Shown here in pieces: positions 14,695 to 38,362 of a stretch of DNA of 58,057 nt. Origin of the DNA: an uncultured Oscillospiraceae bacterium (lineage in GTDB: Bacteria; Bacillota; Clostridia; UMGS1883). A program made the translations under genes and the position numbers. Position 1 is the stretch's first letter, and each line of letters opens with the position of its first letter. The DNA is taken from positions 1-58,057 of the forward strand of contig CAYLPQ010000005.1 of the NCBI GenBank assembly GCA_964385605.1. The letters run 5' to 3'. The notes under the pieces are model-generated. The model saw only the letters and a list, made by a program, of their open reading frames with translations. It was not told where the DNA came from and made no database searches.

Positions 14695-15963
14695 TTAATT
14701 CAGACGGGCAGTGTTGAAAGCTTTCATTTTCATATTCTTTCCATCTATATCTTCTACCAGAAGGTTTTCGTGGATGTATTGAACTGTCCTTTTTACCTCG
14801 TCCATATCTTTTGCAGAAAACTTAATCATACCTGCTTTCTGTGCATTTGTGCCGGTATTTGGTATAACGTCGCCGACTTTTTTCCAGATAGAAATATCAT
14901 CAATATTCTTCAGGGTGTCAAGTTTGCTGTAATCAATTTTTGATATTTCCCCTGCTTTTAACAAAAGAGTAAGAGTGCAATAGTATTCTTCAAAAACAGG
15001 ATTGTTTTTACTTATGTCATCTCCCATATCTCCTGTTGTAACATAGGATATAAGCATTTTCATAAAGTCAATATTATTATATTTGCGGATAACCTTATAG
15101 TCATTGTTGCCGTTAACTCTGAAACCCATTTCAAAAGCTTTTATTCCGTCGGCACCTGCGATCAGCTGGAAGTTTGCAACACCGTTTACAGCACCGATTT
15201 TTTTGAGGAGTTTCTTTATTCCGGGGTCTATGGTTTTAAGGAATTCATCGTAAAAACGGGAAGGAGTAATAACAAAATCGCAGAGACATGAATTTTCAAC
15301 TTCTTCTGACAAGTACTTGTCATTCAGACAAGAAAAACTGCTTTCACCGTTGGAAATTGTATAAACAGCACTGAGTTCAACTCCGGTGAGATATTCTTCG
15401 ACGACAACTTCACCGGTTTTTGAATATCCGGCTGCAGCATCAATTGCTTTTGTAAGCTCGCTCTCATTGTTGCATATGGAAATACCTTTTCTCCCGCCGT
15501 TGTCAGATGGTTTGACAATTACCGGATATTTTATTTTGTCAAGGTCTTCCCTTTTCATAGGAAGTCCGAAACAGAACTCCTGAGGAGTATTAACACCACA
15601 TTCTATACACGTTTTCTTAAAAAGCCTTTTGTCACGTGTCAAATTAATCTGTTCTTCTGTTGCGTAAAATGGGGTGCCTATAGCATTTGATATACGGCAG
15701 GCTGCGAGAACTCTGTCTTCGCTGTATCCGGCTATAACACCATCTATTTTCTCCTCTTTGCATTTTTTTGCAACCGATTCGGTGTCTGAATAATCCATAT
15801 TCCATGCATCATCGCTGATAAGCTTTGCGGGACTTATGTTCCAATCCTCATAGCGGTCACAACAGACAACCTCCATATCCATTTCTTTTGCAGCTTTTAC
15901 AAATTCAATATCACTGCCGTCGCTGCTTATAACCAAAAGGCGCTTTCCCTCTAATGATTTCAT
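14695..15963 (-). CDS. ATP-grasp domain ligase (carboxylate-amine ligase type)
   Basis: Pre-ATP-grasp region, then YPVIVKPSDNGGRKGISIC...VVVEEYLTGVELSAVY, typical of ATP-grasp enzymes. It is the last gene of the minus-strand glycan arm, overlapping the PGT gene by 4 nt. Confidence 0.75.
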   Translation of the reverse strand: MKSLEGKRLLVISSDGSDIEFVKAAKEMDMEVVCCDRYEDWNISPAKLISDDAWNMDYSDTESVAKKCKEEKIDGVIAGYSEDRVLAACRISNAIGTPFYATEEQINLTRDKRLFKKTCIECGVNTPQEFCFGLPMKREDLDKIKYPVIVKPSDNGGRKGISICNNESELTKAIDAAAGYSKTGEVVVEEYLTGVELSAVYTISNGESSFSCLNDKYLSEEVENSCLCDFVITPSRFYDEFLKTIDPGIKKLLKKIGAVNGVANFQLIAGADGIKAFEMGFRVNGNNDYKVIRKYNNIDFMKMLISYVTTGDMGDDISKNNPVFEEYYCTLTLLLKAGEISKIDYSKLDTLKNIDDISIWKKVGDVIPNTGTNAQKAGMIKFSAKDMDEVKRTVQYIHENLLVEDIDGKNMKMKAFNTARLN

Positions 15964-16610
15964 ATTTTATTCTCCTTAACTTCAGTTTTTTCTTCGCTGT
16001 CCATAAATGAACGAACTATGTATAAACTTTGAGTTGTCTGGTCATCGTGAACTATGTCTGCGCGTTTGAATACTTTATAAAATGTCAGAAAAAGAATCTT
16101 TATATCCATCCACAGAGACATCTTGCTAACGTATTCAACATCCATTTTGAATTTATCGTCCCAGGAAACGAGATTCCTTCCGTTTACCTGTGCCCAACCG
16201 GTAAGTCCGGGACGGATGTTGTGGCGTACTCTCTCATATTCGTAGTAATATGGCTTATATTTCATAAGAAGCGGGCGGGGACCTACGATGCTTAAATCGC
16301 CTTTCAGGATATTAAGCAGTGAAGGAAGCTCATCGAGACTGGTGCTTCGAAGAAGTCGCCCGAATTTTGTCAATCTTTCGGGTGCGGGAAGTAGTACCCC
16401 GTTTTCATCGGTTTCGTTTGTCATTGAACGGAATTTGTAGAGTTTGATAGGTTTTTCGTCTTTTCCCATTCTTTCGGATTTGTAAAGAACAGGGCTTCCC
16501 ATGTTAATCCTTACAAAGATGGCAATAATTGCAAGCACCCACCAAAACAGCAGCAGTGCCAAAGCTGAAAGGAAAATATCCAGAAATCTTTTAAAAAATT
16601 TAGCATACAT
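15960..16610 (-). CDS. Small (PglC/WbaP C-terminal type) undecaprenyl-phosphate sugar phosphotransferase; initiating PGT
   Basis: 216 aa with one N-terminal re-entrant helix and the bacterial sugar transferase motif DELPSLLNILKGDLSIVGPRP. Confidence 0.9.
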   Translation of the reverse strand: MYAKFFKRFLDIFLSALALLLFWWVLAIIAIFVRINMGSPVLYKSERMGKDEKPIKLYKFRSMTNETDENGVLLPAPERLTKFGRLLRSTSLDELPSLLNILKGDLSIVGPRPLLMKYKPYYYEYERVRHNIRPGLTGWAQVNGRNLVSWDDKFKMDVEYVSKMSLWMDIKILFLTFYKVFKRADIVHDDQTTQSLYIVRSFMDSEEKTEVKENKI

Positions 16611-16636
16611 TATGTATTTCTCCTTTTACTGATGTG

Positions 16637-17671
16637 TTATGCCCTGTATTTCGGGAAAAATCCACTATCAGGAAGTTCTGTTCTCAATGATACAAGATAG
16701 TCATATAATTCCTGGTTGAAAATCTTTTTCCCGATATGGAAACGAGGCAAGTCGTCAAGTCTGTAAAAAGACTTTTTGAATTTAAACAGACTGTCTTCAC
16801 CACTGCCTACACCACCGCCGAGGTACAAGGATTTATATCCGTTTGCACATCCCCAAAGAGCAGCTTCATAAAGAAGTAAGTTAGTGGGGGCAAGGTTTGA
16901 ATATTCGCGAACGGAGCCTGAAAGATGGTAATTCATAAATCCGTTGGCATTGAGCATTATTGACGCAGCTATAACTTTACCATCCAGCTCTGCATAAAAG
17001 ACTTGTGAATTATAGGGAAGATCGTCGCAAATGCTTTTATAAAATTCAGGAGAAAAATAGTAATAGGAATCAGCATTATCCTTATCCATAGTACCATTGT
17101 ATATTTCTCTGAATTTTTCGTATATTTCGGGATGTCTGCCATTGTATATGTGTATTGAATTTTTCTGAGCTTTTCTTATAACATTGCGGTTTTTGCTTGT
17201 TATATTTGCCCATATTGTTTCAGGAGAAGACAAATCAAGATTAACTGTATAGCCTAGCCCAATTACATCGTATGATGTCGCGTGAAGGTGGTTTTCAATA
17301 ACAGGATGAAACCTTACAAATTCGGAAATGATATTATTTTCAAAGCACCATTTTTCGTATTCAGCGAACAGAGAAGAGGTGTTAGCGCCCTCAATCAGCC
17401 AACCGCCGTAACCGTAAGGTGTTGCAAGGTCAAAATATTTGCCTTTTTCAATAACGGAACTAAAACGGGAATCGTCAGAAATATCGCGCTTCATTACAAC
17501 GTTTATGCCCCTTGTGGAAGCATCTTCATAGTAAAAAAGAAGTGCAGTTCCGTCTCCGTGAATTTCAAATGCCTTCACATAGCCTGATAGCCAGTATGTA
17601 TCATAATTTTCAAACGAGCAAACTATATTATTCCACTCGACTTCCTGCTGTGTTGATAAGACAGTCAGCAA
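16637..17671 (-). CDS. FemAB-like / GNAT-fold aminoacyl (peptide bridge-type) transferase
   Basis: 344 aa. Blocks ATPYGYGGW, NRNVIRKAQK, NYHLSGS and SLFKFKKSF resemble the FemX/FemAB and Acetyltransf_6 families. Confidence 0.65.
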   Translation of the reverse strand: MLTVLSTQQEVEWNNIVCSFENYDTYWLSGYVKAFEIHGDGTALLFYYEDASTRGINVVMKRDISDDSRFSSVIEKGKYFDLATPYGYGGWLIEGANTSSLFAEYEKWCFENNIISEFVRFHPVIENHLHATSYDVIGLGYTVNLDLSSPETIWANITSKNRNVIRKAQKNSIHIYNGRHPEIYEKFREIYNGTMDKDNADSYYYFSPEFYKSICDDLPYNSQVFYAELDGKVIAASIMLNANGFMNYHLSGSVREYSNLAPTNLLLYEAALWGCANGYKSLYLGGGVGSGEDSLFKFKKSFYRLDDLPRFHIGKKIFNQELYDYLVSLRTELPDSGFFPKYRA

Positions 17672-18639
17672 CTTAAAACACCTCCGTAAGCAAGTATTTC
17701 TTTTACTATGCGTTTCATATGAGTCTCATCATACCGTTGATCACATATAAGGCTGATCTCACGTTCATAAATTTCCTCTGTGGAAGGAGAAATTTCTGTA
17801 TGACGGGATGATTTCGGCCAGTGAACAGGACAGTATATTTCTTTTTGTATAAGATGTGACCGCAACCCGTTGCGATTTCTGACTTTTATGGGGACGAACA
17901 GGGGACAGTCATTGTCATTAAGTTCAGGAAAAATCGCAATATCACGTAGCGAATCGAGCAGAACCTGCGCATTTTTCCGTCTTTTGTGTCTGATAAGATC
18001 CACGTTAAGCTTTGATGCAATAAGTACTTCATCGGCATCTGCCGGAAAAACACCTATATGTTCCAGCATATCCTCAGCAGTGCCAAATTTCTCAAAATAG
18101 TTTTTGTCATCCGTTTCTTCGTTGATATATGCTTTTTTGTCTGACATAGCTGTTTTTTTCAACTTAATAAAATCAGGGAAATCACCCTCAAAGCAAACCT
18201 GCGATTTAAAACCTGTGGCGAATCCGCCAGTAGCAAAACCTGCCCATTTGCGAAGACTGCCAAAACAGTAGTCAGCATTATTGGAACCTAAAGAAAAAAG
18301 AGAATGGGTAACATCGCGGATAACAATTCCGTCAAAATCACACAATTGATTGTTCTGGCTATAACCGAAATAATCAATAACAAGTACTGCATCTGCATTA
18401 GTACGGATTTCCCGGCTGAAGGCAGGATAAAAAGAAACCTCAATTCCCTCATCAAGAAACGGGTCTATCATACTTTCGCAACACCAGTCCGGAAGAGCAA
18501 CTGATTTGAAATTGCTGTCCCTTATGATTGCTTTAAGTGCGCTACGGCCGGAAATAAACCACTGTGTATCCGCAGAGAACAGACTGTTTTTTTCAGTTAA
18601 AGGGATACCCCAGAATTCGCTTCCAATTTCAGTTCTCAT
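17665..18639 (-). CDS. Uncharacterised protein, possibly PLP-dependent transferase fold (DegT-like, distant)
   Basis: 324 aa, first gene of the minus arm. GRSALKAII and GSLRKW segments faintly resemble fold-type I aminotransferases of sugar pathways. The assignment is weak. Confidence 0.4.
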   Translation of the reverse strand: MRTEIGSEFWGIPLTEKNSLFSADTQWFISGRSALKAIIRDSNFKSVALPDWCCESMIDPFLDEGIEVSFYPAFSREIRTNADAVLVIDYFGYSQNNQLCDFDGIVIRDVTHSLFSLGSNNADYCFGSLRKWAGFATGGFATGFKSQVCFEGDFPDFIKLKKTAMSDKKAYINEETDDKNYFEKFGTAEDMLEHIGVFPADADEVLIASKLNVDLIRHKRRKNAQVLLDSLRDIAIFPELNDNDCPLFVPIKVRNRNGLRSHLIQKEIYCPVHWPKSSRHTEISPSTEEIYEREISLICDQRYDETHMKRIVKEILAYGGVLSC

Positions 18640-18677
18640 ATTTTCCCATCCTAATTTGACAAACTATCACATATATC

Positions 18678-18706
18678 ATAATACAACTTTTTTTTGACTG
18701 TGTCAA
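18678..18706 (-). promoter_or_regulatory. Putative promoter of the minus-strand glycan arm
   Basis: On the minus strand: TTGACA, a 17-nt spacer, then TATTAT, about 40 nt upstream of the ATG at 18639. Confidence 0.55.
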
Positions 18707-18764
18707 ACGTTTTTGTGTATAAGAGGCTTAAATGCAAATTTGTAGGTTTGCAAAGCTGTTAGTA

Positions 18765-18793
18765 TTGACATTTTTTGCTCATTATTATATAAT
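18765..18793 (+). promoter_or_regulatory. Consensus sigma-70 promoter of the plus-strand glycan arm
   Basis: Perfect TTGACA, a 17-nt spacer, then TATAAT, about 58 nt upstream of the ATG at 18851. Confidence 0.65.
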
Positions 18794-18850
18794 ACACTAG
18801 ATTGATTGTGTGATCAAAACAGTTTGAAGAATAACATGGGAGAATGTAAA

Positions 18851-19861
18851 ATGTGTCAGATTTCCTTAATTGTGCCGGTATACAATGCCGAAAAGAGCTT
18901 ACGAAAGTGCCTTGACAGTATTCAGGGACAAGTATTTGGCGATTTTGAGGTTCTTTTAATTAATGATGGCTCCAGGGATAATAGCGAGGCTATTTGTACT
19001 GAATACTGCAACAAGGATTCGAGATTCAGAATTATTAATCAGGAAAATAGCGGACCTTCTTCGGCAAGAAACAGAGGAATAGATGAATCAACCGCAAAAT
19101 ATCTTGCTTTTGTCGATTCCGATGACTATATAGAACCGGATATGCTTGAAAAGTTATATACTGCCGCAGAGGAAGCAAATGCAGATTTAACAATATGCGG
19201 ATACTATATCGAAAATGAGCACGGCAGTAAAAAAGAGTCTGTTTGTAAATTTGATGCAGGCATTTACCGCGGTGAAGAATGCAGAAAGATAGCGATTGAA
19301 ACAATTGATATTGGGATAGCAGGAAATATACGTCCGTATTCATGTATAAGGTTTGTGCGTCGTGAATGTATGGAAAATCCAAAGATGCGATTTTGTACAG
19401 AAATATATCGGAGCGAGGACTATCTTCTTTGGACGCAGGTTTTCTTTAATATTGATTGCCTCTGCCTTATGCCTGATAAATATCTCTACCACTATGTTGA
19501 AAATGCAGGCTCAATAACTCATAAGTATGTAAAAGATTACTGGAAAATGGCAAAGGAAATATATGAGAAATTGAAGCTTGAGTTGCCTGAAGAAAAAGAA
19601 ATTTCTCAAAATCTTGCTTTTATGTTTATAAGGCGCACATATATGTCGCTGAATATAATAAACAAGGCAAAGGATAAATCAACCTTTAAAAGTGATATGA
19701 GAGAGATTTTAAAAGATAAAAAGCTCAGAGAGGTTGTTGACAGTATTCCTTTTAAGAAAGGAGTAAAAGTTCAGAAGCACCGGTATCTGCTTTTGAAATT
19801 CAGACTTTATTTTTTGATCAGGTTAATAAATTGTTATCGCCATAGAAAATTTATGAAGTAA
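18851..19861 (+). CDS. Glycosyltransferase family 2
   Basis: SLIVPVYNAEKSLRKCLDSIQGQ...LLINDGSRDNS...FVDSDD are classic GT2 (GT-A, DxD) blocks. Start trimmed to MCQISLIV, which has a GGGAGA RBS. Confidence 0.9.
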   Translation: MCQISLIVPVYNAEKSLRKCLDSIQGQVFGDFEVLLINDGSRDNSEAICTEYCNKDSRFRIINQENSGPSSARNRGIDESTAKYLAFVDSDDYIEPDMLEKLYTAAEEANADLTICGYYIENEHGSKKESVCKFDAGIYRGEECRKIAIETIDIGIAGNIRPYSCIRFVRRECMENPKMRFCTEIYRSEDYLLWTQVFFNIDCLCLMPDKYLYHYVENAGSITHKYVKDYWKMAKEIYEKLKLELPEEKEISQNLAFMFIRRTYMSLNIINKAKDKSTFKSDMREILKDKKLREVVDSIPFKKGVKVQKHRYLLLKFRLYFLIRLINCYRHRKFMK

Positions 19862-19864
19862 GGG

Positions 19865-21007
19865 ATGAGAATCGTGAAGGCTGGAATTATAACGTTTCAT
19901 TTTGCGCACAACCAGGGTGCTGTTTTGCAAGGCTATGCGTTGCAGAAGTTTCTGAAAAAATTGGGGCATGATGCAGAAGTTATAAACTATTGTCCGCCGT
20001 ACCATACAAATCGTTACAGTGCAAGAAGAAATCCTTTTATAATGGCATCGGATACCCTTAAAAAGAATAAAAATCTGAAAATTCAAAAAAGGTTATATAA
20101 AGCAGCTCGTTCCTTTGCAAAAGGAATTTATATTTCTGTTACCGGAGTATACAAACTGCGTGAGAAAAAGTTTGGCGATTTTGTAAAGAAAAATCTTGAT
20201 TTGACAAGAGAATATAAATCCCTTAAAGACCTTCAGAAAAATCCTCCAAAGTGTGATATATACATATCGGGGAGTGACCAACTGTGGAATCCTGAATTGG
20301 TGAACAATGGGTTTGACGGTGCGTATTTTTTGGATTTCGGAGCAAGTAACATAAAAAAGATTACTTATGCAGTCAGTCTGAAGGAGAGTTATACACAGAA
20401 AGAAAAAGACGAGATAAAGGCATACTGTAGAAATATTGATGTTATTTCATCACGCGAGAAAAGTGAAACTCTTGATGAACTGCTTGGAGAAAACTACACA
20501 GTGTGTGTGGACCCGACCCTGCTTCTTTCAAAAGAAGAGTTTGCTGATGCAGAAAACGAAATTGAGGAAAAAGAGCCATACATTTTTGTATATGGCTTTG
20601 AAACATCGCCCAATATGGTTGAGGCGGTAGATGTGATTTCAAAAGCTACGGGATTTCGGGTTATCAACGGTTCTCCGGACAGAGTATATCTTAATAATGC
20701 GACAAAGCTTCGCAATTATGGTCCGGGCGAATTTCTCGGCTATATAAAGAATGCTGATTTTGTGATAACAAACTCTTTCCATGGAACGGCATTTTCGCTT
20801 ATTTATAATAAAAAGTTTGTTACGGTAGCACATACAACTCGCGGTAGGAGAATGACAGAGTTGCTTGGGAAGATGGGGCTTTCGGACAGAATATGGTCAG
20901 AGAATGGTTGTAAGTGGGAAGAAGAGATTGATTATTCAGTGGCAGAACAAAGAAGGAACGAATTGAAAGAACAAGCTACAGAGTACCTTAACAATAATTT
21001 GAAATGA
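19865..21007 (+). CDS. Polysaccharide pyruvyl transferase family protein (CsaB/WcaK-like)
   Basis: 380 aa. The N-terminus (IITFHFAHNQGAVLQGYALQKFL), SGSDQLWN and NSFHGTAFS blocks are typical of PF04230-type pyruvyl transferases. Confidence 0.8.
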   Translation: MRIVKAGIITFHFAHNQGAVLQGYALQKFLKKLGHDAEVINYCPPYHTNRYSARRNPFIMASDTLKKNKNLKIQKRLYKAARSFAKGIYISVTGVYKLREKKFGDFVKKNLDLTREYKSLKDLQKNPPKCDIYISGSDQLWNPELVNNGFDGAYFLDFGASNIKKITYAVSLKESYTQKEKDEIKAYCRNIDVISSREKSETLDELLGENYTVCVDPTLLLSKEEFADAENEIEEKEPYIFVYGFETSPNMVEAVDVISKATGFRVINGSPDRVYLNNATKLRNYGPGEFLGYIKNADFVITNSFHGTAFSLIYNKKFVTVAHTTRGRRMTELLGKMGLSDRIWSENGCKWEEEIDYSVAEQRRNELKEQATEYLNNNLK

Positions 21008-21019
21008 GGGAATTTTATT

Positions 21020-22168
21020 ATGCCGGAATTATATAGCAAAGAAAATTTGTCACAATGCTGCGGATGTACCGCCTGTTTTGCAGAATGTCCGACAGATGCC
21101 ATAACAATGGTTTGTGATGAGGAAGGTTTTTTGTATCCTTCGATTGATAAAGAAAAATGTATAGAGTGTAATGCGTGTGTACGGGTGTGCCCGCTGAAAG
21201 AAGAGAGTAAAGCTGTTAGGGAAGAAACAAAAACTTTCATTGCACTTAAAAACAAAAATAAAGAAACAATCCTCTCAAGTTCTTCGGGTGGAGCCTTTTC
21301 CGCAATTTCAGACTATATATTGAGCGAGGGCGGTGTAATTTACGGTGTAGTTTTTGATGAAAAACTACAGGCTGTTCATATACGTACTGACAATAAGGCC
21401 GGACGCGATGAAATGAGGGTTTCAAAATATCTGCAAAGTGATATGAAGGACATTTTCAGCAAGGTAAAGACAGATGCGGATAACGGAATGAAGATTCTTT
21501 TCACCGGGACTCCTTGTCAGATTGAGGGACTTAAACGGTTTCTTAAAAAAGATTATGAAAATCTCTACCTGGCGGATATAATTTGCTATGGGGTGCCAAG
21601 TCCGCTGATGTTTTCGGAGCATATTAAAAATATTGAAAAAACAAGAAAGAAAAAAGTAAAAAATTATAAATGCAGATCTAAAGTTCAGGGTTGGCACAGG
21701 CATATAGAAGAAGCTGTGTTTGAAAATGGAAAGAAAGAGGCAGGAACTCCGCTTTTGCAGGAACATAAGGTGCTTTTCCACGGTGGGAATATATTGCGTC
21801 CTTCATGTTATGAGTGCCAATTCACAAATCTTTACAGGCCATCGGATATTACGTTGGGAGATTTCTGGGGAATAGAAAAGTGTATGCCTGAATGGGATGA
21901 CCAGACAGGGACATCAATAATACTTGTCAATTCTCCAAAGGGTGAAAAATTGCTGGAAAAAATAGAGAAAGATGTTGTTATTCGAAAAAGCGATGTTTAC
22001 GGCAGGCAACCTCATCTTGAAATGCCTGTTAAAAAACCCGCAGGCCGAGAAGAATTCTGGGACATGTACCGTAAATATGGATACAAATGTGTTGCAGCCA
22101 AATACGGCAGAAACAACCTTAAGAGTAGGGTGAAATATGTTGCAAAAAAACTCTTGAGAAAAAGCTGA
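21020..22168 (+). CDS. FrhB-like (coenzyme F420 hydrogenase/dehydrogenase beta-like) 4Fe-4S flavoprotein
   Basis: Two ferredoxin-type clusters (CCGCTACFAECP and CIECNACVRVCP), followed by an FrhB-like N/C domain arrangement. This family often sits next to pyruvyl transferases in EPS loci. Confidence 0.75.
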   Translation: MPELYSKENLSQCCGCTACFAECPTDAITMVCDEEGFLYPSIDKEKCIECNACVRVCPLKEESKAVREETKTFIALKNKNKETILSSSSGGAFSAISDYILSEGGVIYGVVFDEKLQAVHIRTDNKAGRDEMRVSKYLQSDMKDIFSKVKTDADNGMKILFTGTPCQIEGLKRFLKKDYENLYLADIICYGVPSPLMFSEHIKNIEKTRKKKVKNYKCRSKVQGWHRHIEEAVFENGKKEAGTPLLQEHKVLFHGGNILRPSCYECQFTNLYRPSDITLGDFWGIEKCMPEWDDQTGTSIILVNSPKGEKLLEKIEKDVVIRKSDVYGRQPHLEMPVKKPAGREEFWDMYRKYGYKCVAAKYGRNNLKSRVKYVAKKLLRKS

Positions 22169-22239
22169 AAATGAATAATGATATTGTGAAAAACATATTT
22201 TTGCAGATTTACTAAAAACTCGAAAGAGGGAAAGATAAA

Positions 22240-32210: not shown

Positions 32211-32226
32211 ATTGAGGTGAATTTAG

Positions 32227-33150
32227 TTGACAAAAGTATTGGTTTTAATGGGTGGTTTATCAACCGAAAGAGAAGTTTCGCTCCGCAGTGGCAATGCCGT
32301 GGCGAAAGCTCTTGAGGAAAAGGGTTATGAGGTTGCTGCCCTTGACATACAAAAGGAAACTATCGGCAAAATCCAGGAAATCAATCCCGATGTGGTATTT
32401 CTTGCTCTCCACGGAAAATACGGGGAAGACGGATGTATCCAGGGTATGCTTGAATGGATGGGCTATCCTTATACAGGCCCCGGTGTTGCATCCAGTGCAA
32501 TCTGTATGGACAAAATTCTCACAAAGAGGATTCTTGTAAATCACAATATACCTACTCCGAAGTTTATGGAATTTAAGTCCTTTGATAAGTGGACGAAAGA
32601 TGTAATTCTCAAAAATTTCTCTATGCCTGTTGTGCTTAAGGCGGCATGTCAGGGTTCAAGCATCGGTGTGAGCATTGTCGGAAGTGAAGCACAGCTTGAA
32701 AAAGAAATTGAGGAGATTTTGAAATATGGCGACAGCCTTCTTGTTGAAGAATTTATTGGCGGAACAGAGCTTACAGTTCCTATTATCGGAAATGAAAACT
32801 ACCGTGCACTTCCAATAATTGAAATCACCTCCGAAAACGAGTTTTACGATTTTGAGTCGAAGTATACACAGGGTATGTGTCAGCATATTATCCCTGCACG
32901 GATTGATGAAGCTACGTACAAAGCAGTTGAAAAAGCCGCACTTCAGGCATATGGAGCCGCAGGTTGTAAGGGCTTTTCGCGAGTAGACGTGATAATTGAT
33001 AAAAATAACAATCCTTATGTTATTGAAATAAACACTATCCCCGGAATGACGTCTATGAGTCTTTTTCCGGATTCAGCGCGCTATGCAGGAATTGAATTTC
33101 CCGAGCTTCTGGATGAAGTTGTAAAACTTGCATTGGAGAAAAAATTATGA
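32227..33150 (+). CDS. ddl: D-alanine--D-alanine ligase family ATP-grasp enzyme
   Basis: VLVLMGGLSTEREVSLRSG, LHGKYGEDGCIQGMLEWMGYPYTGPGV and EINTIPGMT are Ddl blocks. TTG start with a GAGGTGA RBS. Confidence 0.85.
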   Translation: MTKVLVLMGGLSTEREVSLRSGNAVAKALEEKGYEVAALDIQKETIGKIQEINPDVVFLALHGKYGEDGCIQGMLEWMGYPYTGPGVASSAICMDKILTKRILVNHNIPTPKFMEFKSFDKWTKDVILKNFSMPVVLKAACQGSSIGVSIVGSEAQLEKEIEEILKYGDSLLVEEFIGGTELTVPIIGNENYRALPIIEITSENEFYDFESKYTQGMCQHIIPARIDEATYKAVEKAALQAYGAAGCKGFSRVDVIIDKNNNPYVIEINTIPGMTSMSLFPDSARYAGIEFPELLDEVVKLALEKKL

Positions 33151-33665
33151 AAAAGATTATAATTATCGGTGCTGGTACTTTTTCAACAGTTGTTATTGAG
33201 TCCATTCTGGAAAATCCTTTTTATGAGGATTATGAAATAGAGGGTTTCCTTGATGATGGGAGCATCTGCGACGGAAATTTTGACTATCCTCTTTTGGGTA
33301 AAATTGACGATGCGGAAAAATTCAACGACAAAGATACTTACTTTGTGTTGGCGATAGGCTCACCTGATGCGAGAAGGTCTATTGCTGAAAAGCACCCCTA
33401 CCTTAACTATCTGACAGTTATCGATAAATCAGCTAATATAAGCAAATATGCAACCATCGGAAAAGGTTGCGTGATTATGAAAAACACATCAATCAACACT
33501 CTTGTAAGAGTAGACGATTTTGCAATAGTAAATACCGGCGCAATAGTTGACCATCATGTTAAGGTTGGTCGCTATACTCATGTGGGACAGGGTGTAGTTC
33601 TCTGGCACAGCGCACAGGTTGACGAGTGTCAGCATCTTTTCCCAGGAACAGTTATTAAGGGTTAG
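33147..33665 (+). CDS. NeuD/PglD-type sugar N-acetyltransferase (left-handed beta-helix)
   Basis: N-terminal Rossmann-like KKIIIIGAGTFSTVVIESI plus C-terminal hexapeptide repeats. ATGA overlap with ddl. Confidence 0.7.
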   Translation: MKKIIIIGAGTFSTVVIESILENPFYEDYEIEGFLDDGSICDGNFDYPLLGKIDDAEKFNDKDTYFVLAIGSPDARRSIAEKHPYLNYLTVIDKSANISKYATIGKGCVIMKNTSINTLVRVDDFAIVNTGAIVDHHVKVGRYTHVGQGVVLWHSAQVDECQHLFPGTVIKG

Positions 33666-33769
33666 GAGCAGGCTGTGCCTGTCCCCGGGTCGCGTACTTA
33701 CCTAGTAAAACATAATTCCACGCGTTTGAATTTTATATAATTTACCACATGGTAAAAAGGAGAAGAATT

Positions 33770-34990
33770 ATGACAACGCAGTTTGAAGAATTTCTGAATG
33801 TCCTTGGACATTCAGTGTTTGGATCTGAATATTGTCCCTCGGGAAAAGCCGATTGCACAGCTATATATAATATGGCAGTAAAGCAGGGGGTTTTTCCTCT
33901 TGTTTATCCGGTTGTTTCTGAAAAAATTCCGTCTTCCGATATGAAGTGGGAAATGCTCTTCCTGCAAACTGTTGCAATTAATGAGAAAAAACTGTATTGC
34001 CTCCAAAAAATAATTGAAAACTTTGACAAAGAGAATATAGAATACTGCGTTCTTAAAGGTGTCAGTGTAGCAAGTGTGTATTTTATGCCGGAATGTCGTG
34101 CTTCGGGAGATATAGATATTTATGTATATCCCGAAAGTGAAAGAAAAGCAACAAAAATCCTCGAAAATATGGGGATGAATATCGTACCCAGAGGTGCGGA
34201 GGGTCATCACTTTGAAGCGAGGGACAAAAACGGTGGACTTATTGAGGTTCATATTGCCTTGTATGATAAAATGCTCGGACACATCGTCTTTAAAAATAAG
34301 TTTTCAGTTACACAGCCATTCATAACTGTTGAGACAAAAGGCGGATTTACGGCAAACTCATTAGGTATCCTGGATAACCTCAATTTCCTTACGGCACATC
34401 TTATCAAGCATTTTGTCAAGGAGGGGTGCGGTATCCGCCAGGTTACAGACCTGCTTGCTTTTGTGAATACGTATAAAGATGAAATTGATATGGAAAAGTA
34501 TTTTTCAGTGCTGAAAGAAATTAAGTTTGACACATTTATCAAAAATATTTTTGGTATAGGGGTGAAGTACTTCGAACTTCAGCTCAACGATTATGAAACA
34601 GAGTTAAGCGACAAAATTCTTGAAGATATAGAAACAGGCGGAAGTTTTGGCTTTGGTGAAGAGGAACGAAACGGATTTTACGAAAGTTTCCTGAAAACTC
34701 GTTCAGAAATGTCTGCTGACGAATTTAACAAAAATCTCGATAAAAAACGTAAACAAAGCATTATAAAGAGTGTGCTTTTACCGGGTAAAGGTTTCCTGAT
34801 AAAAAAAGGATATAACTATCTCAAAAAATCTTCACTGCTTTATCCTGTTGCATATATTCACAGAATCTTTGACGTGTTAAAGCTTTTAATAAGCAGAAAA
34901 CGAAAAATATCGGATTTAAATTATAAAGAAAAATCAAACAGTACCATTGACGACAGAATGAAACTGATGGAAGAAATGAAAATTATATAA
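33770..34990 (+). CDS. Uncharacterised nucleotidyltransferase family protein (NTP_transf_5-like)
   Basis: CVLKGVSVASVYFMPECRASGDIDIYVYPE...GLIEVHIALY matches the pattern of the 'uncharacterised nucleotidyltransferase' family. Start trimmed to MTTQFEEF, which has an AAAGGAG RBS. Confidence 0.6.
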   Translation: MTTQFEEFLNVLGHSVFGSEYCPSGKADCTAIYNMAVKQGVFPLVYPVVSEKIPSSDMKWEMLFLQTVAINEKKLYCLQKIIENFDKENIEYCVLKGVSVASVYFMPECRASGDIDIYVYPESERKATKILENMGMNIVPRGAEGHHFEARDKNGGLIEVHIALYDKMLGHIVFKNKFSVTQPFITVETKGGFTANSLGILDNLNFLTAHLIKHFVKEGCGIRQVTDLLAFVNTYKDEIDMEKYFSVLKEIKFDTFIKNIFGIGVKYFELQLNDYETELSDKILEDIETGGSFGFGEEERNGFYESFLKTRSEMSADEFNKNLDKKRKQSIIKSVLLPGKGFLIKKGYNYLKKSSLLYPVAYIHRIFDVLKLLISRKRKISDLNYKEKSNSTIDDRMKLMEEMKII

Positions 34991-35007
34991 AAAAGGAAAA
35001 TGAAATT

Positions 35008-36141
35008 ATGTACAGTGAAAAGTTTTTTTGCCCATACCGCATATGTCCGCTCGGGGCCCACAGCGACCACCAGTACGGAATAGTAAGCGGTTTTGCCATT
35101 GATAAAGGCATAGAAATTGAATATGATAAAACTACTGACGGAAGTATCGTTCTTTCCAGTAATGAATTCTCAACACAGGTAGAGTTTTCTCTCAATAAAC
35201 CCATTTTGAAAAATGGTGACTGGGCAGACTATTTAAGAGGTGCTGCGGCATCCCTTAATCGCAACTATGATCTTCCCTACGGTGTGAAGGCACATATAAA
35301 AGGTAGTCTTCCTATTGGCGGACTTTCCTCGTCTGCGGCTGTAATTATTGCATTCCTCGGCACACTTTGCCGTGTAAATGGGATAGTTCTTTCAAAAGGT
35401 GAAATTGTTGATACTGCTCTTTGGGCAGAAAGAAATTTCGTGGGAGTAAGTGTAGGTAAGCTTGACCAGTCCTGTGAGGTTTATTCTAAAAAGGACCACC
35501 TCCTTAAAATTGACACCAAGGATGACTCTTACGAGCTTATTACGAAGCACAAGGACATGCCACCATTTGAATTTGTTGTATTTTTCAGCGGACTTGAAAG
35601 AAGTCTTGTAGGAAGTAAATTCAATATGCGTGTGGACGAGCTTAAGAGTGCCGCTTATGCGCTCAAGGCATTTTCAGGTATGGAATACGGCAAGTTTGAG
35701 GATGCTGTTCTCCGCGATGTTCCCAAGGAAGTTTTTGAGGAGTACAAGCACAAGCTTCCCGAAAACTGGAAAAAAAGAGCAGAGCATTTCTATACAGAAT
35801 TTGAACGTGTTAAGAATGGCGCGGAATTTTGGAGAAAGGGCGACCTTGCATCTTTCGGACAGCTTGTTTTCCAAAGTGGGGAAAGTAGCATCTACAACTT
35901 TGAGACAGGTTCTGTTCAGCTTAAGAAAATCCACGAAATTATGCTTGAAACCCCCGGAATTTACGGAGGACGTTTCAGTGGCGCGGGATTCAAGGGCTGT
36001 GCAATGGCTCTTATAAATCCTGAATACAAAGAAGAAATTGCATATAACGTTACAACGCAGTATCTTAAGGAATTCCCCGAACTTGAGGGTAAGTTCAGCG
36101 TGAATTTCTGTAATACTGCAGACGGAGTAAAGCTTAACTGA
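35008..36141 (+). CDS. GHMP-family sugar-1-kinase (galactokinase/galacturonokinase-like)
   Basis: N-terminal [15 protein letters not shown] (galactokinase-signature variant), GHMP motif [14 protein letters not shown] and C-terminal [12 protein letters not shown]. Confidence 0.8.
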
Positions 36142-36157
36142 AAGGAAAGATGTTACA

Positions 36158-37342
36158 ATGAAGATTACAGTTGCAGGAACAGGATATGTAGGTATTTCAA
36201 ATGCGATTTTGCTTGCGCAGAATAATGAGGTGTGGGCGGTAGATATCGTTCCTGAAAAGGTGGATATGATAAATAACGGCAAATCCCCCATCGTAGACAA
36301 GGAAATCGAGGAGTATCTTAAAGAAAAGACTCTTAACCTTACTGCTACAACAGATGCACAAAAAGCATACAAGGATGCGGATTTTGTTATCGTGTCAACA
36401 CCCACAAACTATGACCCGAAGCTAAACTATTTTGATACGTCTTCGGTTGAAAGTGTAATTGAGCTTGTAATGGAAATAAATCCTTCGGCTGTTATTGTTA
36501 TAAAATCAACTGTACCCGTTGGATATACTGAAAAAGTAAGGGAAAAATATAACTGTGACAATATTATTTTCTCTCCTGAATTTTTAAGAGAGGGAAAAGC
36601 TCTTTACGATAATCTCTATCCTTCAAGAATTATTGTGGGATTTCCGAAAAACAATGAAGTTCTGGCAGAAAAAGCAAATGTTTTTGCATCTCTTCTTCAA
36701 GAGGGCGCAATCAAGGATGATATACCTGTACTTTTTACTAATCCTACCGAAGCGGAGGCGGTAAAGCTTTTTGCTAATACGTATCTTGCTCTTCGGGTAT
36801 CATTCTTTAACGAGCTTGATACATATGCAGAGGTAAGAGGGCTTGATACAAAGCAGATTATTGAAGGAGTAGGTCTCGACCCGAGAATTGGATCGCATTA
36901 CAATAACCCCTCTTTTGGATACGGGGGATACTGTCTGCCAAAGGATACAAAGCAGTTGCTTGCTAATTTCAACGATGTACCAAATAATATTATTCGTGCG
37001 ATTGTTGATGCAAACAGCACCAGAAAAGATTTTATAGCGGACAGAATTATAGAAAAGAATCCTAAAATAGTGGGAATATACCGTCTTACAATGAAAGCAA
37101 ATTCCGATAATTTCCGTCAAAGCTCTATACAGGGTGTAATGAAAAGAATTAAGGCAAAGGGCATAGAAGTTGTAGTTTATGAGCCTACACTCAAGGAGGA
37201 AAAATTCTTCAATTCGCGTGTTATAGAGAGTCTTGAGGATTTTAAGGGTATGTCTGACGTAATTATCGCAAACAGGTATAATGACGAGATTGCGGATGTT
37301 ATTGACAAGGTTTATACGAGAGATTTGTATTTCAGAGATTAA
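36158..37342 (+). CDS. ugd: UDP-glucose 6-dehydrogenase
   Basis: [20 protein letters not shown], the catalytic block [10 protein letters not shown], and length 394 aa. Confidence 0.95.
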
Positions 37343-37354
37343 CAGGAGGCTGTT

Positions 37355-38362
37355 ATGGCAGATTTTAAAAAATATACAGGTAAAGAAAAAATTCTTATAA
37401 CAGGTAGCGCAGGATTTATAGGTTTCCATCTTTCAAAGAGAATTCTTGAAGAGGGTGGCGAGGTTGTTGGCTTTGATAATCTTAACGATTATTATGACGT
37501 CAACCTTAAATATGCCCGTCTTGAAATTCTTGAAAAGTATGAGAAGTTTACTTTTATAAAGGGAAACCTTGCAGATAAAGAAGCAGTTGACAATCTCTTT
37601 ATCACGTATAAGCCCGACGTTGTGGTAAACCTTGCGGCACAGGCAGGAGTAAGATATTCTATTGATAATCCCGGAAGCTATATCGAAAGTAACATCGTAG
37701 GATTTTACAACATTCTTGAAGCTTGCAGAAATTATCCTGTAGAGCATCTTTTGTATGCGTCAAGCTCATCTGTTTATGGCAATCAGAAAAAGACTCCCTT
37801 TTCAACGGATGACAATGTCGACCATCCTATAAGCCTTTATGCTGCAACAAAAAAGTCAAACGAGCTTATGGCATTTACATATAGCCATCTTTATAATATT
37901 CCTGCAACGGGACTTCGTTTCTTTACAGTATACGGACCTTACGGCAGACCTGATATGGCATATTTTTCATTCACTAAAAAGATTATGAATGGCGAAGCTA
38001 TTAAGATTTTCAATAATGGAGATATGTACCGTGATTTTACTTATGTTGACGATATTGTTCAGGGGATTATGAATATGCTTCTTAATCCACCCAGGCCCGA
38101 TGAAAACGGAGACAGGGCAAAGGTTTACAATATCGGGAACAACAATCCCGAAAAGCTTATGTATTTTATTGAAACTCTTGAAAAAGCCATCGGCAGAGTA
38201 GCTGAAAAGGAATATCTTCCTATGCAACCCGGCGATGTATATCAGACTTATGCCGATGTAACGGAGCTTCAGAAGGATTTCGACTTTAAACCGTCTACAT
38301 CTATTGAGGACGGACTTAATAAATTTGCGAAATGGTATTTTGAATATTACGGAGAAAATTGA
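37355..38362 (+). CDS. NAD-dependent UDP-glucuronate 4-epimerase (SDR, Cap1J/WbnF-like)
   Basis: ILITGSAGFIGFHL, YAATKKSNE (YxxxK), and DNLNDYYDVNLKYARL typical of UDP-GlcA epimerases. Directly downstream of ugd. Confidence 0.85.
   Translation: MADFKKYTGKEKILITGSAGFIGFHLSKRILEEGGEVVGFDNLNDYYDVNLKYARLEILEKYEKFTFIKGNLADKEAVDNLFITYKPDVVVNLAAQAGVRYSIDNPGSYIESNIVGFYNILEACRNYPVEHLLYASSSSVYGNQKKTPFSTDDNVDHPISLYAATKKSNELMAFTYSHLYNIPATGLRFFTVYGPYGRPDMAYFSFTKKIMNGEAIKIFNNGDMYRDFTYVDDIVQGIMNMLLNPPRPDENGDRAKVYNIGNNNPEKLMYFIETLEKAIGRVAEKEYLPMQPGDVYQTYADVTELQKDFDFKPSTSIEDGLNKFAKWYFEYYGEN

Follow-up and report, generated by a model that had tools for sequence, protein, structure and literature searches.

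TupA-like ATP-grasp amidoligases take their family name from the teichuronopeptide system of Bacillus halodurans. In the Campylobacter capsule, the TupA-like domain of Cj1438 (Cj1438C), which is fused to a GT2 glycosyltransferase, amidates the C6 carboxylate of glucuronic acid (GlcA) (PMC11800379), and TupA-like enzymes have been predicted to attach amino acids to surface polysaccharides (PMC12632600). The TupA-like protein CfmP is tied to a protein modification, which counts against reading the family as uronamide-forming. Here we analysed a 58-kb stretch of DNA (the window) from an uncultured gut Clostridia bacterium, containing a locus with two TupA-like genes. Most likely this locus belongs to a known kind, the amino-acid-decorated Wzx/Wzy polysaccharide loci. 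The original prediction did not recognise its gene set as a described locus and, as far as we can tell, the exact locus is undescribed so far; its closest relatives are uncultured MAGs throughout. We consider it reasonably probable that the product is a Wzx/Wzy-type surface heteropolysaccharide with amino-acid side groups on its uronic acids and on its first amino sugar. We observed directly to which families the proteins belong, that catalytic motifs are intact, and the patterns of synteny and conservation; from these we infer all substrates and the order of the steps.

Layout of the locus and its initiation module

Between 14695 and 38362 we found 22 ORFs (Table 1), instead of the 24 genes counted before; five of them (g04, g06, g07, g19 and g20) were absent from the earlier description. 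Each family named there was recovered in its place by Pfam and NCBIfam profile searches. Profile matches confirmed the Wzx/Wzy-pathway parts (PglC-type transferase, two GT2, two GT4, Wzy, Wzx, DegT and PglD-like proteins), and the five presumed amide- or peptide-bond-forming enzymes all fall in ligase or aminoacyl-transferase families. The divergent promoter region proposed between the two arms has consensus promoters on both strands: TTGACA-17-TATAAT on the plus strand at 18765-18793 (12/12 sigma-70 consensus) and a minus-strand match at 18706-18678 (11/12), the top two sigma-70-like matches in a 9-kb scan. Since an RBS (GGGAGA) precedes ATG 18851 and a Logan contig gene call gives 336 aa, g05 probably starts there and not at TTG 18806. 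The plus arm continues gaplessly, with 4-base overlaps, into the core genes uup (ABC-F), yaiI and rdgB.

Table 1. Features of the locus and its surroundings, in order of position.
Feature	Assignment	Coordinates	Strand	Basis or remark
	unknown 334-aa ORF + MBOAT (DltB/AlgI-like) O-acyltransferase	11168..13641	+	possible accessory, outside the locus range
g01	LAL/PurD-like ATP-grasp carboxylate-amine ligase, 422 aa	14695..15963	-	Pfam, solved relatives
g02	small monotopic (PglC-type) phosphoglycosyl transferase	15960..16610	-	Bac_transf
g03	FemX-like (FemAB/Acetyltransf_6) transferase	16637..17671	-	Pfam, FemX structures
g04	divergent sugar-aminotransferase-fold (DegT/WecE/PseC-like) protein	17665..18639	-	AF2 model, Foldseek
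	divergent promoter region	18640..18850	.	sigma-70-like scan, sequence reading
g05	GT2 glycosyltransferase	18806..19861	+	Glycos_transf_2 129.9 bits
g06	polysaccharide pyruvyl transferase	19865..21007	+	PS_pyruv_trans 133.7 bits
g07	FrhB/FdhB-like 4Fe-4S oxidoreductase, partner of g06	21020..22168	+	FrhB_FdhB_C 89.5 bits, Fer4
g08	DegT-family sugar aminotransferase (LegC/PseC-like)	22240..23373	+	DegT profile
g09	GT4 glycosyltransferase (GT4a), paired with TupA1	23376..24461	+	Glycos_transf_1 108 bits
g10	TupA-like ATP-grasp amidoligase 1 (TupA1)	24482..25399	+	PF14305 166.4 bits
g11	GT4 glycosyltransferase (GT4b), paired with TupA2	25396..26460	+	Glycos_transf_1 136.3 bits
g12	TupA-like ATP-grasp amidoligase 2 (TupA2)	26457..27317	+	PF14305 248.8 bits
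g13	L-2,4-diaminobutyrate:2-oxoglutarate transaminase (EctB/Dat type)	27322..28587	+	PRK09264, TIGR02407, TIGR00709
g14	GT2 glycosyltransferase	28587..29510	+	Glycos_transf_2 104 bits
g15	Wzy-type repeat-unit polymerase (Wzy_C family)	29531..30778	+	Wzy_C 39.8 bits
g16	Wzx flippase (MOP family)	30762..32210	+	Polysacc_synt_3 324.8 bits
g17	D-alanine--D-alanine ligase (Ddl)	32227..33150	+	Pfam, PRK01372, synteny
g18	PglD/NeuD-like left-handed-beta-helix N-acetyltransferase	33147..33665	+	PglD_N 54.3 bits
g19	NTP_transf_5 (uncharacterised nucleotidyltransferase family) protein	33749..34990	+	PF14907 121 bits
g20	galactokinase-like GHMP sugar-1-kinase	35008..36141	+	GHMP_kinases_N and C, GalKase signature
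g21	UDP-glucose 6-dehydrogenase (Ugd)	36158..37342	+	UDPG_MGDP_dh, TIGR03026, PRK15057
g22	SDR epimerase	37355..38362	+	Epimerase 200.5 bits

The MBOAT protein upstream of the locus scores 137 bits with MBOAT and 171 bits, under the cutoff, with a DltB-like model. The pair that it forms with the 334-aa ORF has no counterpart between dctM and lysR in two related loci (L002 and L084), and a 40% identical MBOAT protein lies in a TupA/diaminobutyrate-transaminase locus (L021).

By sequence comparison, the minus arm together with the DegT protein g08 is a conserved initiation module. L084 has the operon g04-g03-g02-g01 and the DegT gene in the corresponding place, with 52-86% identity (g01, 68.7%; g08, 85.6%), while the other arm differs. 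Further away, the Enterococcus faecium cps locus carries a 70% identical copy of g03 and a DegT 46.7% identical to g08. Homologues of g03 number more than 6,000, with over 100 clusters sharing 68-74% identity. Such FemX-like genes always adjoin genes for a small phosphoglycosyl transferase, a protein of aminotransferase fold and a GT4. The g03 protein matches FemAB (44.6 bits, cutoff 24), Acetyltransf_6 (41.2 bits) and Weissella FemX structures (E 1e-5), and the Phe-Lys motif of FemX is conserved in it ('FKFK', aligned to 'VFKH' of FemX). It is a candidate aminoacyl-tRNA-dependent N-aminoacyl transferase, probably acting on the first amino sugar.

No match to g04 was found in Pfam or NCBIfam. 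It has 3,266 homologues. In alignment A1, Lys131 is invariant within 'GSLRKW', and the AF2 model of g04 (pLDDT 91.3) shows a DegT/sugar-aminotransferase fold, with WlaRF/WlaRG, WecE, ArnB and PseC as top Foldseek matches (E ~1e-12, TM ~0.6). The second aminotransferase-fold protein, g08, scores 306.4 bits with DegT and 351 bits with a LegC-family model, under its 420 cutoff; neither a 4,6-dehydratase nor any other enzyme that forms keto-sugars for these two proteins is present in the 58-kb window. Bac_transf covers the entire 216-aa g02 protein (210.5 bits), and WbaP/WcaJ models match its C-terminal catalytic domain alone. The last gene of the arm, g01, matches Dala_Dala_lig_C (40.4), ATP-grasp_4 (33.4) and, weakly, LAL_C2; among solved structures it is closest to 4dim, then to GAR synthetases, Ddl and the L-amino-acid ligase 3vot. 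We hypothesize that this module would make an amino sugar and attach one or two amino acids to the amino group by N-acylation, after which g02 would start the glycan by placing the acylated sugar on undecaprenyl phosphate.

GT4-TupA pairs and their supply genes

TupA1 and TupA2 score far above the PF14305 cutoff of 25, are intact with their ATP-grasp catalytic residues, and each stands directly behind a GT4. The invariant residues of the family (K103, E156, D169, K171, R242, D244 and E256 in TupA2) are all kept in TupA1, which is 38% identical to TupA2. A genome scan with TupA2 confirmed 206 relatives, chiefly in gut Clostridia MAGs. In 79 related loci, a GT4a or GT4b homologue directly flanks 59 of the 121 TupA genes, and the GT4a-TupA1 pair itself recurs in L002, L014 and L061. 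Because 32 of the 79 loci have 2-4 TupA-like genes, and others of the lineage up to five ATP-grasp genes, the present locus is not unusually loaded with ligases, contrary to what had been proposed.

The activated uronates could be provided within the locus, where the predicted UDP-GlcA/UDP-GalA supply module is present. Ugd (g21) has all three UDPG_MGDP_dh domains (TIGR03026, 347.7 against 189.8; PRK15057, 640), and shares 77-80% identity with the copies found in other TupA loci. The best solved relative of g22 is 5u4q (400 bits), followed by 6zl6/6zla (177 bits), the UDP-GlcA 4-epimerase of Bacillus cereus; by this likeness g22 is probably a UDP-glucuronate 4-epimerase. Within 10 kb of TupA, Ugd occurs in 30 of the 79 loci and the epimerase in 48, and the two are paired in 30.

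The transaminase g13 had been described as diaminobutyrate-type, and it passes equivalog and subfamily cutoffs for diaminobutyrate (DAB) transaminases (PRK09264, 591 vs 438; TIGR02407, 558 vs 552; also TIGR00709). It is translationally coupled to its neighbours, with a 4-base gap to TupA2 and a 1-base overlap with the second GT2 gene, and from sequence it is a candidate supplier of the amine. Copies at 64% identity adjoin a TupA homologue and a GT4 in L021 and L048. The closest relative of the locus, L002, has no DAB transaminase beside its TupA2 orthologue (68% identical), and relatives of g13 at 50-60% identity sit in non-glycan contexts, so the link to DAB comes from two lineages only.

By analogy, the best reading is that uronic acids bear amine or amino-acid substituents, because Cj1438C is shown to amidate the GlcA C6 carboxylate. 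With Ugd and the 4-epimerase as their source of GlcA or GalA, the GT4s would add these uronates, and each TupA-like enzyme would convert a C6 carboxylate to an acyl phosphate and couple an amine to it. For TupA2 the amine would probably be L-2,4-diaminobutyrate that g13 makes in situ. Such amidation chemistry was shown for Cj1438C and is proposed for TupA1 and TupA2. The TupA and GT4 genes, the uronate supply and the transaminase thus speak for the amine or amino-acid substituents of the original prediction; as to its short peptides, the evidence fits single residues or very short stems at most.

Polymerisation, export and the ddl gene

The Wzy_C family of g15 also includes O-antigen ligases and O-oligosaccharyltransferases. 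The locus could therefore make a short oligosaccharide that g15 transfers onto protein, for example an SLH-domain protein: the family covers WaaL/PglL-type ligases, a chain-length regulator and an LCP ligase are both missing from the 58-kb window, a 948-aa SLH (S-layer-like) protein is encoded 7 kb downstream at 45668-48514, and the best NCBIfam match of g16 is an O-glycosylation Wzx model, far under its cutoff (287 vs 720). We find this unlikely, since related loci that differ in their glycosyltransferases also differ in their Wzy_C gene: homologues of g15 occur only in L001 and L002 of the first locus set, and L084 has a different gene. A polymerase specific for one linkage should vary in this way, whereas an oligosaccharyltransferase of relaxed specificity should not; besides, regulators and ligases may sit elsewhere in the genome. 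As polymerase and flippase, Wzy would then polymerise the unit that Wzx (g16; MOP flippase model, 191.7 bits) would flip.

The Ddl protein g17 had been counted among the glycan ligases, a role that finds no support. It matches Dala_Dala_lig_C (199.9), the N domain (87.1) and PRK01372 (385 vs 243), and retains all DdlB catalytic residues of both D-Ala sites, including Tyr216, Ser150, Ser281 and Leu282. Its identity to the copies in L002, L085 and L086 (88.5%, 82% and 77%) lies in the band of the neighbouring core genes; in L002, flanking core genes are 88-96% identical and glycan genes 55-77%. In L085, ddl opens the conserved flank, directly before uup-yaiI-rdgB, and depending on the genome 0, 2 or 5 glycan genes lie between ddl and uup. 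A smoothly falling gradient of identity ends in homologues of 60-62% that occur on their own in non-glycan contexts, one of them named from Syntrophomonas erecta. Of the 79 TupA loci, 78 lack Ddl. On these comparisons g17 is almost certainly the housekeeping cell-wall D-Ala-D-Ala ligase, and the conserved flank ddl-uup-yaiI-rdgB has almost certainly been engulfed by the variable locus. It is accordingly quite improbable that g17 makes D-Ala-D-Ala or D-Ala-X for another ligase to attach as a peptide stem, even though ddl lies amid glycan genes in the window, L002, L086 and L087, L087 is extremely rich in ATP-grasp genes, and a LAL-type ATP-grasp gene stands directly 5' of ddl in L002. As the gene of an ordinary peptidoglycan enzyme, ddl would belong to one border of the site that the locus would occupy, which would be prone to recombination and has lysR on one side and the core block ddl-uup-yaiI-rdgB on the other.

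The remaining genes recur in related loci. The GT2 protein g14 is 77.8% identical to its L002 copy. Homologues of g06 were found in 13 loci and of g07 in 8, both together in several (L011, L023, L060 and L073). The g18 protein scores 127.9 bits with a NeuD family model, under the 160.8 cutoff, and is 64% identical to its L086 copy. Near ddl, GHMP or SDR genes, g19 recurs in L008, L085 and L086, and copies of g20 (galactokinase models 205 bits, under cutoffs) at 59-69% identity adjoin an SDR in L085 and L086.

The proposed product

A pyruvylated secondary cell-wall polymer that anchors SLH proteins, initiated by TagO/MnaA and only incidentally amidated, would account for the pyruvyl transferase g06, the SLH protein downstream and the TagO/WecA-like (7067-8125) and MnaA/WecB (5858-7009) genes upstream. 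It is very unlikely: an essential anchoring epitope ought to be conserved, but the pyruvyl transferase/FrhB pair is not in the fetched parts of the syntenic L002 and L084, whose lineages retain the SLH protein, as L085 shows, and a PglC-type initiating transferase is already encoded in the locus itself. A teichuronopeptide-like copolymer as in Bacillus halodurans, with a peptide such as poly-glutamate joined to polyuronate, would fit the family name and the several amide-forming enzymes but is hardly credible, as neither a poly-gamma-glutamate synthetase (PgsB/CapB-type) nor an NRPS or any other peptide polymerase is encoded in the 58-kb window, and four different glycosyltransferases with Wzx/Wzy indicate a heteropolysaccharide repeat-unit design. 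The same absence of a poly-amino-acid synthetase or NRPS speaks against the glycan-peptide hybrid polymer first suggested.

We propose instead that the initiation module is extended by a variable repeat-unit module (two GT2, two GT4-TupA pairs, and the pyruvyl transferase with its FrhB-like partner) to roughly a pentasaccharide. The product would be a polysaccharide, and no peptide copolymer, whose side groups are amino acids and which also bears a pyruvate ketal; it may be zwitterionic. Clusters for amino-acid-decorated surface polysaccharides are common in gut Clostridia.

Gene content and chromosomal site of the locus

Every enzyme family named in the original prediction was found in its place by ORF listing and by Pfam and NCBIfam profile searches. 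The 24 genes claimed there are, however, 22 ORFs (g01-g22 in coordinate order), five of which had been missed: g04, which has no profile match, and those coding for a pyruvyl transferase (g06), an Fe-S protein (g07), an NTP_transf_5 protein (g19) and a GHMP kinase (g20). The minus arm (g01-g04) is a four-gene operon whose genes overlap or nearly abut, and the plus arm spans from a GT2 gene (start at 18806 or 18851) to the SDR epimerase g22, ending at 38362. The proposed divergent promoter region between the arms contains the two best sites of a 9-kb scan for sigma-70-like promoters, one on each strand. Because of the position of the plus-strand promoter and of the ribosome binding site GGGAGA, the ATG at 18851 is more likely to be the GT2 start. 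Profile searches detected the parts of a Wzx/Wzy pathway: a phosphoglycosyl transferase for initiation, a flippase of the MOP family and a Wzy-type polymerase. The ORFs scanned in the window include neither a chain-length regulator (CpsC/D, Wzz) nor a cell-wall ligase (LCP), which the genome may encode at another place. RNA elements were ruled out, as a scan of the window gave no tRNA genes or Rfam matches, and a mobile element or phage origin was dropped because no supporting genes were seen.

Features of the locus and its flanks, and related groups on other contigs
Feature	Sequence	Position	Strand	Remark
mnaA/wecB	window	5858-7009		left flank
tagO-like	window	7067-8125		left flank
334-aa ORF and MBOAT (DltB/AlgI-like)	window	11168-13641	+	ORF without Pfam/NCBIfam match; between dctM and lysR
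g01 ATP-grasp	window	14695-15963	-	minus-arm operon
g02 Bac_transf	window	15960-16610	-	minus-arm operon
g03 FemAB-like	window	16637-17671	-	minus-arm operon
g04	window	17665-18639	-	minus-arm operon; no Pfam/NCBIfam match
Divergent promoter region	window	18640-18850		
Promoter	window	18765-18793	+	perfect TTGACA-17-TATAAT
Promoter	window	within 18640-18850	-	11/12 sigma-70-like match
g06 pyruvyl transferase	window	19865-21007	+	profile match
g07 FrhB/FdhB-like Fe-S protein	window	21020-22168	+	profile match
g19 NTP_transf_5 protein	window	33749-34990	+	profile match
g20 GalK-like GHMP kinase	window	35008-36141	+	profile match
uup (ABC-F), yaiI (DUF188), rdgB (Ham1)	window	38359-41272	+	after last glycan gene; 4-base overlaps
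M16-peptidase-like pair	window	42145-44788	+	above NCBIfam YfmF/YfmH cutoffs (367 and 471 bits)
948-aa SLH protein	window	45668-48514	+	SLH domains, 94.6 bits
NTP_transf_5/GHMP group	L085	1229-4355		
NTP_transf_5/GHMP group	L086	6775-10083		
NTP_transf_5/GHMP group	L008	17304-18488		
Ligase-rich glycan locus	L087 (Logan contig, ERR3393582)	1-16981		

Two gene pairs of the plus arm have homologues elsewhere. The pyruvyl transferase is directly followed by the 4Fe-4S protein g07 (19865-22168); their homologues occur in 13 versus 8 loci of the first locus set, and both are recorded in L011, L023, L060 and L073. The g19-g20 pair (33749-36141), coding for a member of an uncharacterised nucleotidyltransferase family and a galactokinase-like kinase, also turns up in relatives close to ddl and the epimerase gene, in L085 together with a classical NTP_transferase. 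It may serve to salvage a free sugar, possibly a uronic acid, by converting it into a nucleotide sugar.

The exact TupA2 protein (g12) is on record on one Logan contig only (SRR14307658). A scan with one genome per species gave 206 relatives. Nearly all come from Clostridia MAGs of the gut or rumen, and some from Bacilli and Bacteroidales; the best match, at 68% identity, lies in L002, from 'Clostridia bacterium SGB_3154'. The left flank carries core genes (ATP synthase, mnaA/wecB, tagO/wecA-like, trpS, dctM, lysR), as does the right one (uup, yaiI, rdgB, the yfmF/yfmH pair, lgt, the SLH protein, ispG and the DNA polymerase III alpha subunit). Since the same flanks enclose differing glycan gene sets in L002, L084, L085 and L086, the locus is a hot spot of glycan variation whose place on the chromosome is fixed. 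The ORF/MBOAT pair of the left flank is absent at the equivalent position in the syntenic L002 and L084, and the MBOAT is 40% identical to one within L021, a locus with TupA and diaminobutyrate (DAB) transaminase genes. The pair probably serves in O-acylation of the glycan, as an accessory that would extend the locus leftward past lysR. On the right, no convincing terminator was found on the plus strand until about 41260 and the genes overlap by 4 bases, so that housekeeping genes, ddl among them, may share transcripts with the glycan operon. The YfmF/YfmH models are annotated in NCBIfam as 'EF-P 5-aminopentanol modification-associated'. The SLH protein, 7 kb downstream of the locus and conserved in L085, is a candidate S-layer or wall-anchored protein; together with the upstream tagO-like and mnaA/wecB genes and the pyruvyl transferase, it makes a link to SLH anchoring possible.

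The ddl gene (g17) had been counted among the glycan ligases, and assigning it elsewhere is our chief correction. Its 307-aa product can be aligned over its full length with E. coli DdlB (2dln/1iov, 216 bits), and E15, S150, K215, Y216, R255, D257, E270, N272, S281 and L282, the catalytic and substrate residues of that enzyme, are all identical. It matches both Pfam domains (Dala_Dala_lig_N, 87.1; C, 199.9) and exceeds the curated NCBIfam cutoffs (PRK01372, 385.5 against 243; TIGR01205, 336 against 245.65). Its identity tracks that of the core genes: with respect to L002, core flank genes are 88-96% identical, Ddl 88.5%, LysR 79% and shared glycan genes 55-78%, while in L085 and L086 the values are 82% and 77% for Ddl, 85% and 87% for uup, 82% and 77% for rdgB, and 65% and 82% for yaiI. 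In L085, uup-yaiI-rdgB come directly after ddl; two glycan genes separate ddl from uup in L086, and five in the window. Homologue identities drop smoothly from 93% to 58%, and copies at 60-62% stand alone in non-glycan neighbourhoods, one of them, named from Syntrophomonas erecta, with a DUF188/yaiI gene nearby. Given the kept residues, the core-like identity, the flank synteny and the stand-alone homologues, Ddl is very likely a housekeeping gene of the right flank engulfed by the expanding glycan locus. Against this, a 66% identical orthologue lies deep within a very ligase-rich glycan locus (L087), between GT4 and Wzy. A vancomycin-type Ddl is ruled out by the kept Tyr216, and the VanA/VanG models score far under their cutoffs. 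Taking Ddl as a cell-wall enzyme removes a false lead. Besides ddl, L087 contains five LAL/ATP-grasp genes, one TupA-like and one AsnB-like gene, a ligase count far above that of the window.

Proposed uronic acid amidation and a candidate amine donor

The best-supported reading of the locus, by sequence and by analogy, is that its product would contain amidated uronic acids, as argued by the families and residues of the TupA-like ligases, their pairing with GT4 genes, the uronate supply and a precedent in Campylobacter jejuni. TupA1 (g10) and TupA2 score 166.4 and 248.8 bits against a PF14305 cutoff of 25, covering profile positions 1-241. Residues K103, E156, D169, K171, R242, D244 and E256 (TupA2 numbering) are invariant across the two copies and 10 homologues (Clostridia, Bacilli, Bacteroidales, Elusimicrobia); by analogy, they would form an intact ATP-grasp nucleotide and Mg binding site. 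A PDB sequence search with TupA2 gave no meaningful match and thus no solved relative. As the two copies are only 38% identical, their substrates probably differ. Each follows a GT4 gene, GT4a (g09) and TupA1 being 20 bases apart and GT4b (g11) and TupA2 overlapping by 4 bases. This arrangement recurs: a GT4b/GT4a homologue directly flanks 59 of the 121 TupA genes found in 79 related loci, where ugd lies within 10 kb in 30 loci and an epimerase in 48. The second-best solved relative of the SDR epimerase is 6zl6/6zla, the Bacillus cereus UDP-GlcA 4-epimerase, and Ugd (g21) with this epimerase would supply UDP-GlcA and UDP-GalA. In C. jejuni, the TupA-like C-terminal domain of Cj1438, fused to a GT2, is described as forming an amide on the C6 carboxylate of GlcA (PMC11800379), and PMC12632600 predicts that TupA-like enzymes encoded in polysaccharide loci, Proteus WemR for example, add amino acids.

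The original prediction of uronic acids with amine or amino-acid substituents is thus backed, as an inference, by the TupA genes, the uronate supply and the Cj1438 precedent. Its view of the ligase load as unusual is not, since amidated-uronate gene sets are ordinary here: 32 of the 79 related loci carry 2-4 TupA genes, and L087 holds far more ligases than the window. TupA amidation modules, made of GT4 and TupA and often in several copies, are therefore a common building block in gut Clostridia.

As for the amine, L-2,4-diaminobutyrate is the likeliest candidate for a donor made within the locus, although we propose it only tentatively. It is suggested by the DAB transaminase g13, which exceeds three curated cutoffs (PRK09264, 591.3 against 438; TIGR02407, 558 against 552.2; TIGR00709, 451.9 against 401.6) and sits between TupA2 (4-base gap) and a GT2 gene (1-base overlap). 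It is also suggested by copies at 64% identity beside a TupA homologue and a GT4 in L021 and L048, both from Lachnospiraceae MAGs; L048 also carries an AsnB-like amidotransferase. On the other hand, no DAB transaminase gene lies beside the TupA2 orthologue in L002. A metagenome scan with g13 gave relatives at 50-60% identity only, none with window-like glycan genes nearby; the three contexts inspected contained oxidoreductase, amylase, racemase and flavodoxin genes, and therefore the link between DAB and TupA is not strengthened. An ectoine pathway was ruled out, as ectA and ectC are absent and the neighbours of g13 are TupA2 and GT2. We found no specific report of DAB-substituted uronic acids in the literature searched. 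DAB as amide substituent is a testable lead and could be new chemistry.

The initiation module

The minus arm, with the DegT gene g08 of the plus arm, is predicted to provide an N-aminoacylated amino sugar as the first sugar. The g04 protein has 3,266 homologues and an alignment-wide invariant Lys in a 'GSLRKW' motif. An AlphaFold model built from a 40-sequence alignment (pLDDT 91) was used instead of the single-sequence one (pLDDT 32); as it matches the sugar aminotransferases WlaRF/WlaRG, WecE, ArnB and PseC (E about 1e-12), g04 is modelled as a divergent DegT-fold protein. The g03 protein has more than 6,000 homologues, with more than 100 clusters at 68-74% identity. It matches the FemAB profile (44.6 against a cutoff of 24) and FemX structures, and its 'FKFK' aligns with FemX 'VFKH', so that the Phe-Lys motif (F304-K305 of FemX) is kept. 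Its scores with the FemX/FemAB equivalog models are far under the cutoffs (30.7 against 500 and 36.4 against 260), and in every context examined its homologues are part of glycan loci, with a PglC-type transferase and aminotransferases as neighbours. For these reasons g03 probably works like a Fem enzyme without being a peptidoglycan Fem.

At least 25 top g03 and g04 homologues sit on longest contigs of identical size, and therefore both genes travel together. At the same chromosomal site, L084 keeps the operon g04-g03-g02-g01 and the divergent g08 (52%, 74%, 80%, 69% and 86% identity, respectively), while the remainder of its plus arm differs. In the other lineages examined the FemX-like gene always comes with a small phosphoglycosyl transferase (PGT), an aminotransferase-fold gene and a GT4: the Enterococcus faecium cps variant contains a PglF-like dehydratase, DegT, PGT, g04-like, GNAT, ATP-grasp, FemX-like (70% identical) and GT4 genes; L090 has DegT-PGT-FemX-GT4; and L091 a PGT, two ATP-grasp genes, g04-like, FemX-like and GT4. 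The FemX-like proteins of gut Clostridia MAGs and of E. faecium (e.g. GCA_947052075.1) share 70% identity, against 25-53% for their neighbours. Such conservation across both groups suggests strong constraint on this enzyme or its horizontal spread.

LAL-type ATP-grasp genes accompany DegT, RmlA and GT56 in L002 and L086, with an additional SDR in L086, which would fit a lineage-wide N-acylation of 4-amino-6-deoxy sugars with amino acids. A weak point for an aminoacylated first sugar is that no 4,6-dehydratase was found in the window. The literature searched returned nothing specific on FemAB in polysaccharide loci or on the E. faecium locus. A further step, in which a Fem-type aminoacyl-tRNA-dependent transferase and the LAL-type ligase build a peptide stem of one or two residues on the first amino sugar, giving with diaminobutyrate-uronamides a zwitterionic glycan, we consider unlikely. 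If true, it would be a previously uncharacterised route, and a gut commensal would display a zwitterionic glycan bearing peptide side groups. The genes of this putative module (DegT, DegT-fold, FemX-like, PglC-type, LAL-type) have thousands of homologues in gut Clostridia and E. faecium; a module so widespread, maybe aminoacylating the initiating sugar, is another testable lead that could be new chemistry.

Comparison with known systems and proposed product

Judged by its genes, the locus works like the glucuronamide system of the C. jejuni HS:2/HS:19 capsule (Cj1438 with Cj1437, Cj1436 and Cj1435), where a TupA-like ATP-grasp likewise goes with a glycosyltransferase. That system makes GlcA and has its own transaminase for the amine donor, as the locus is predicted to, and its ATP-dependent amidation of the GlcA C6 carboxylate is demonstrated chemistry (PMC11800379). 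Nevertheless, the ligases of the locus are two diverged copies (38%) encoded separately behind GT4s, while Cj1438, compared here by its description, is a GT2 fusion; and the locus transaminase is a class-III diaminobutyrate enzyme, unlike the serinol-phosphate-forming one of Campylobacter. Profile searches found no HAD phosphatase or PLP decarboxylase in the locus, leaving the DAB transaminase as its sole amine-forming enzyme. The Campylobacter capsule is also assembled by an ABC-transporter-dependent pathway, in contrast to Wzx/Wzy here. The other glycosyltransferase family, the lack of a phospho-amine/HAD pathway and the Wzx/Wzy assembly thus appear to set the locus outside the Cj1438 system.

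Other polysaccharides share part of the design. Proteus mirabilis O-antigens, Vibrio alginolyticus EPS and Vibrio cholerae VPS are likewise heteropolysaccharides with amino acids on GalA or GlcA, and WemR is a TupA-like gene in its Proteus locus as TupA1 and TupA2 are here. However, they belong to other taxa and another envelope type and lack the FemX-like/LAL initiation module; use of 2,4-diaminobutyrate is unreported for them in the literature searched. The E. faecium cps variant (L081-L083) resembles the locus in its FemX-like (70% identical), DegT (47%) and g04-like DegT-fold (30%) proteins, its small phosphoglycosyl transferase, ATP-grasp and GT4. It has in addition a PglF-like 4,6-dehydratase, CpsB/CpsD-type regulators and a GNAT, but no TupA-like genes, ugd or DAB transaminase, all present here. 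We found no chemical structure for it in the literature searched. At family level, Bacteroides fragilis PSA-type loci (WcfR aminotransferase, WcfS initiating transferase) share DegT, a small initiating transferase, a pyruvyl transferase and Wzx/Wzy, and it is plausible that the locus product has free amine and carboxylate groups as the PSA type; PSA lacks uronamides and Fem-like enzymes. TupA of Bacillus halodurans is the founding PF14305 member, and its teichuronopeptide is a uronic-acid polymer with amino acids. That product is described as poly-gamma-L-glutamate and polyglucuronate, whereas the locus is a multi-glycosyltransferase repeat-unit system; as no poly-gamma-glutamate or other peptide-polymer synthetase is among the ORFs scanned in the 58-kb window, its gene content does not correspond to a teichuronopeptide system. 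The locus is a new, uncharacterised amino-acid-decorated polysaccharide locus of known type.

We propose that the repeat unit would comprise about five sugars, one initiating and four added by the glycosyltransferases, and would carry two uronamides, one probably with DAB, a pyruvate ketal made via g06 and the aminoacylated first sugar. Wzx would flip this unit and Wzy polymerise it. From locus to locus, the Wzy_C gene changes along with the glycosyltransferase set, which favours a polymerase rather than an oligosaccharyltransferase. Since the window has no poly-amino-acid synthetase or NRPS, the 'glycan-peptide hybrid polymer' first proposed goes too far, and the product is better described as a 'polysaccharide with amino-acid side groups'.

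In summary, the locus is plausible and typical of variable capsule loci, and the value of the analysis lies in a corrected annotation, giving the correct parts list for one gut Clostridia glycan locus, and in two testable leads. Almost no chemistry is known for the surface polysaccharides that gut Clostridia make, although both susceptibility to phages and recognition by the host immune system are shaped by them. A product with amines and carboxylates both free would be a candidate for a zwitterionic polysaccharide, a type described as modulating T cells (PMC10167101).
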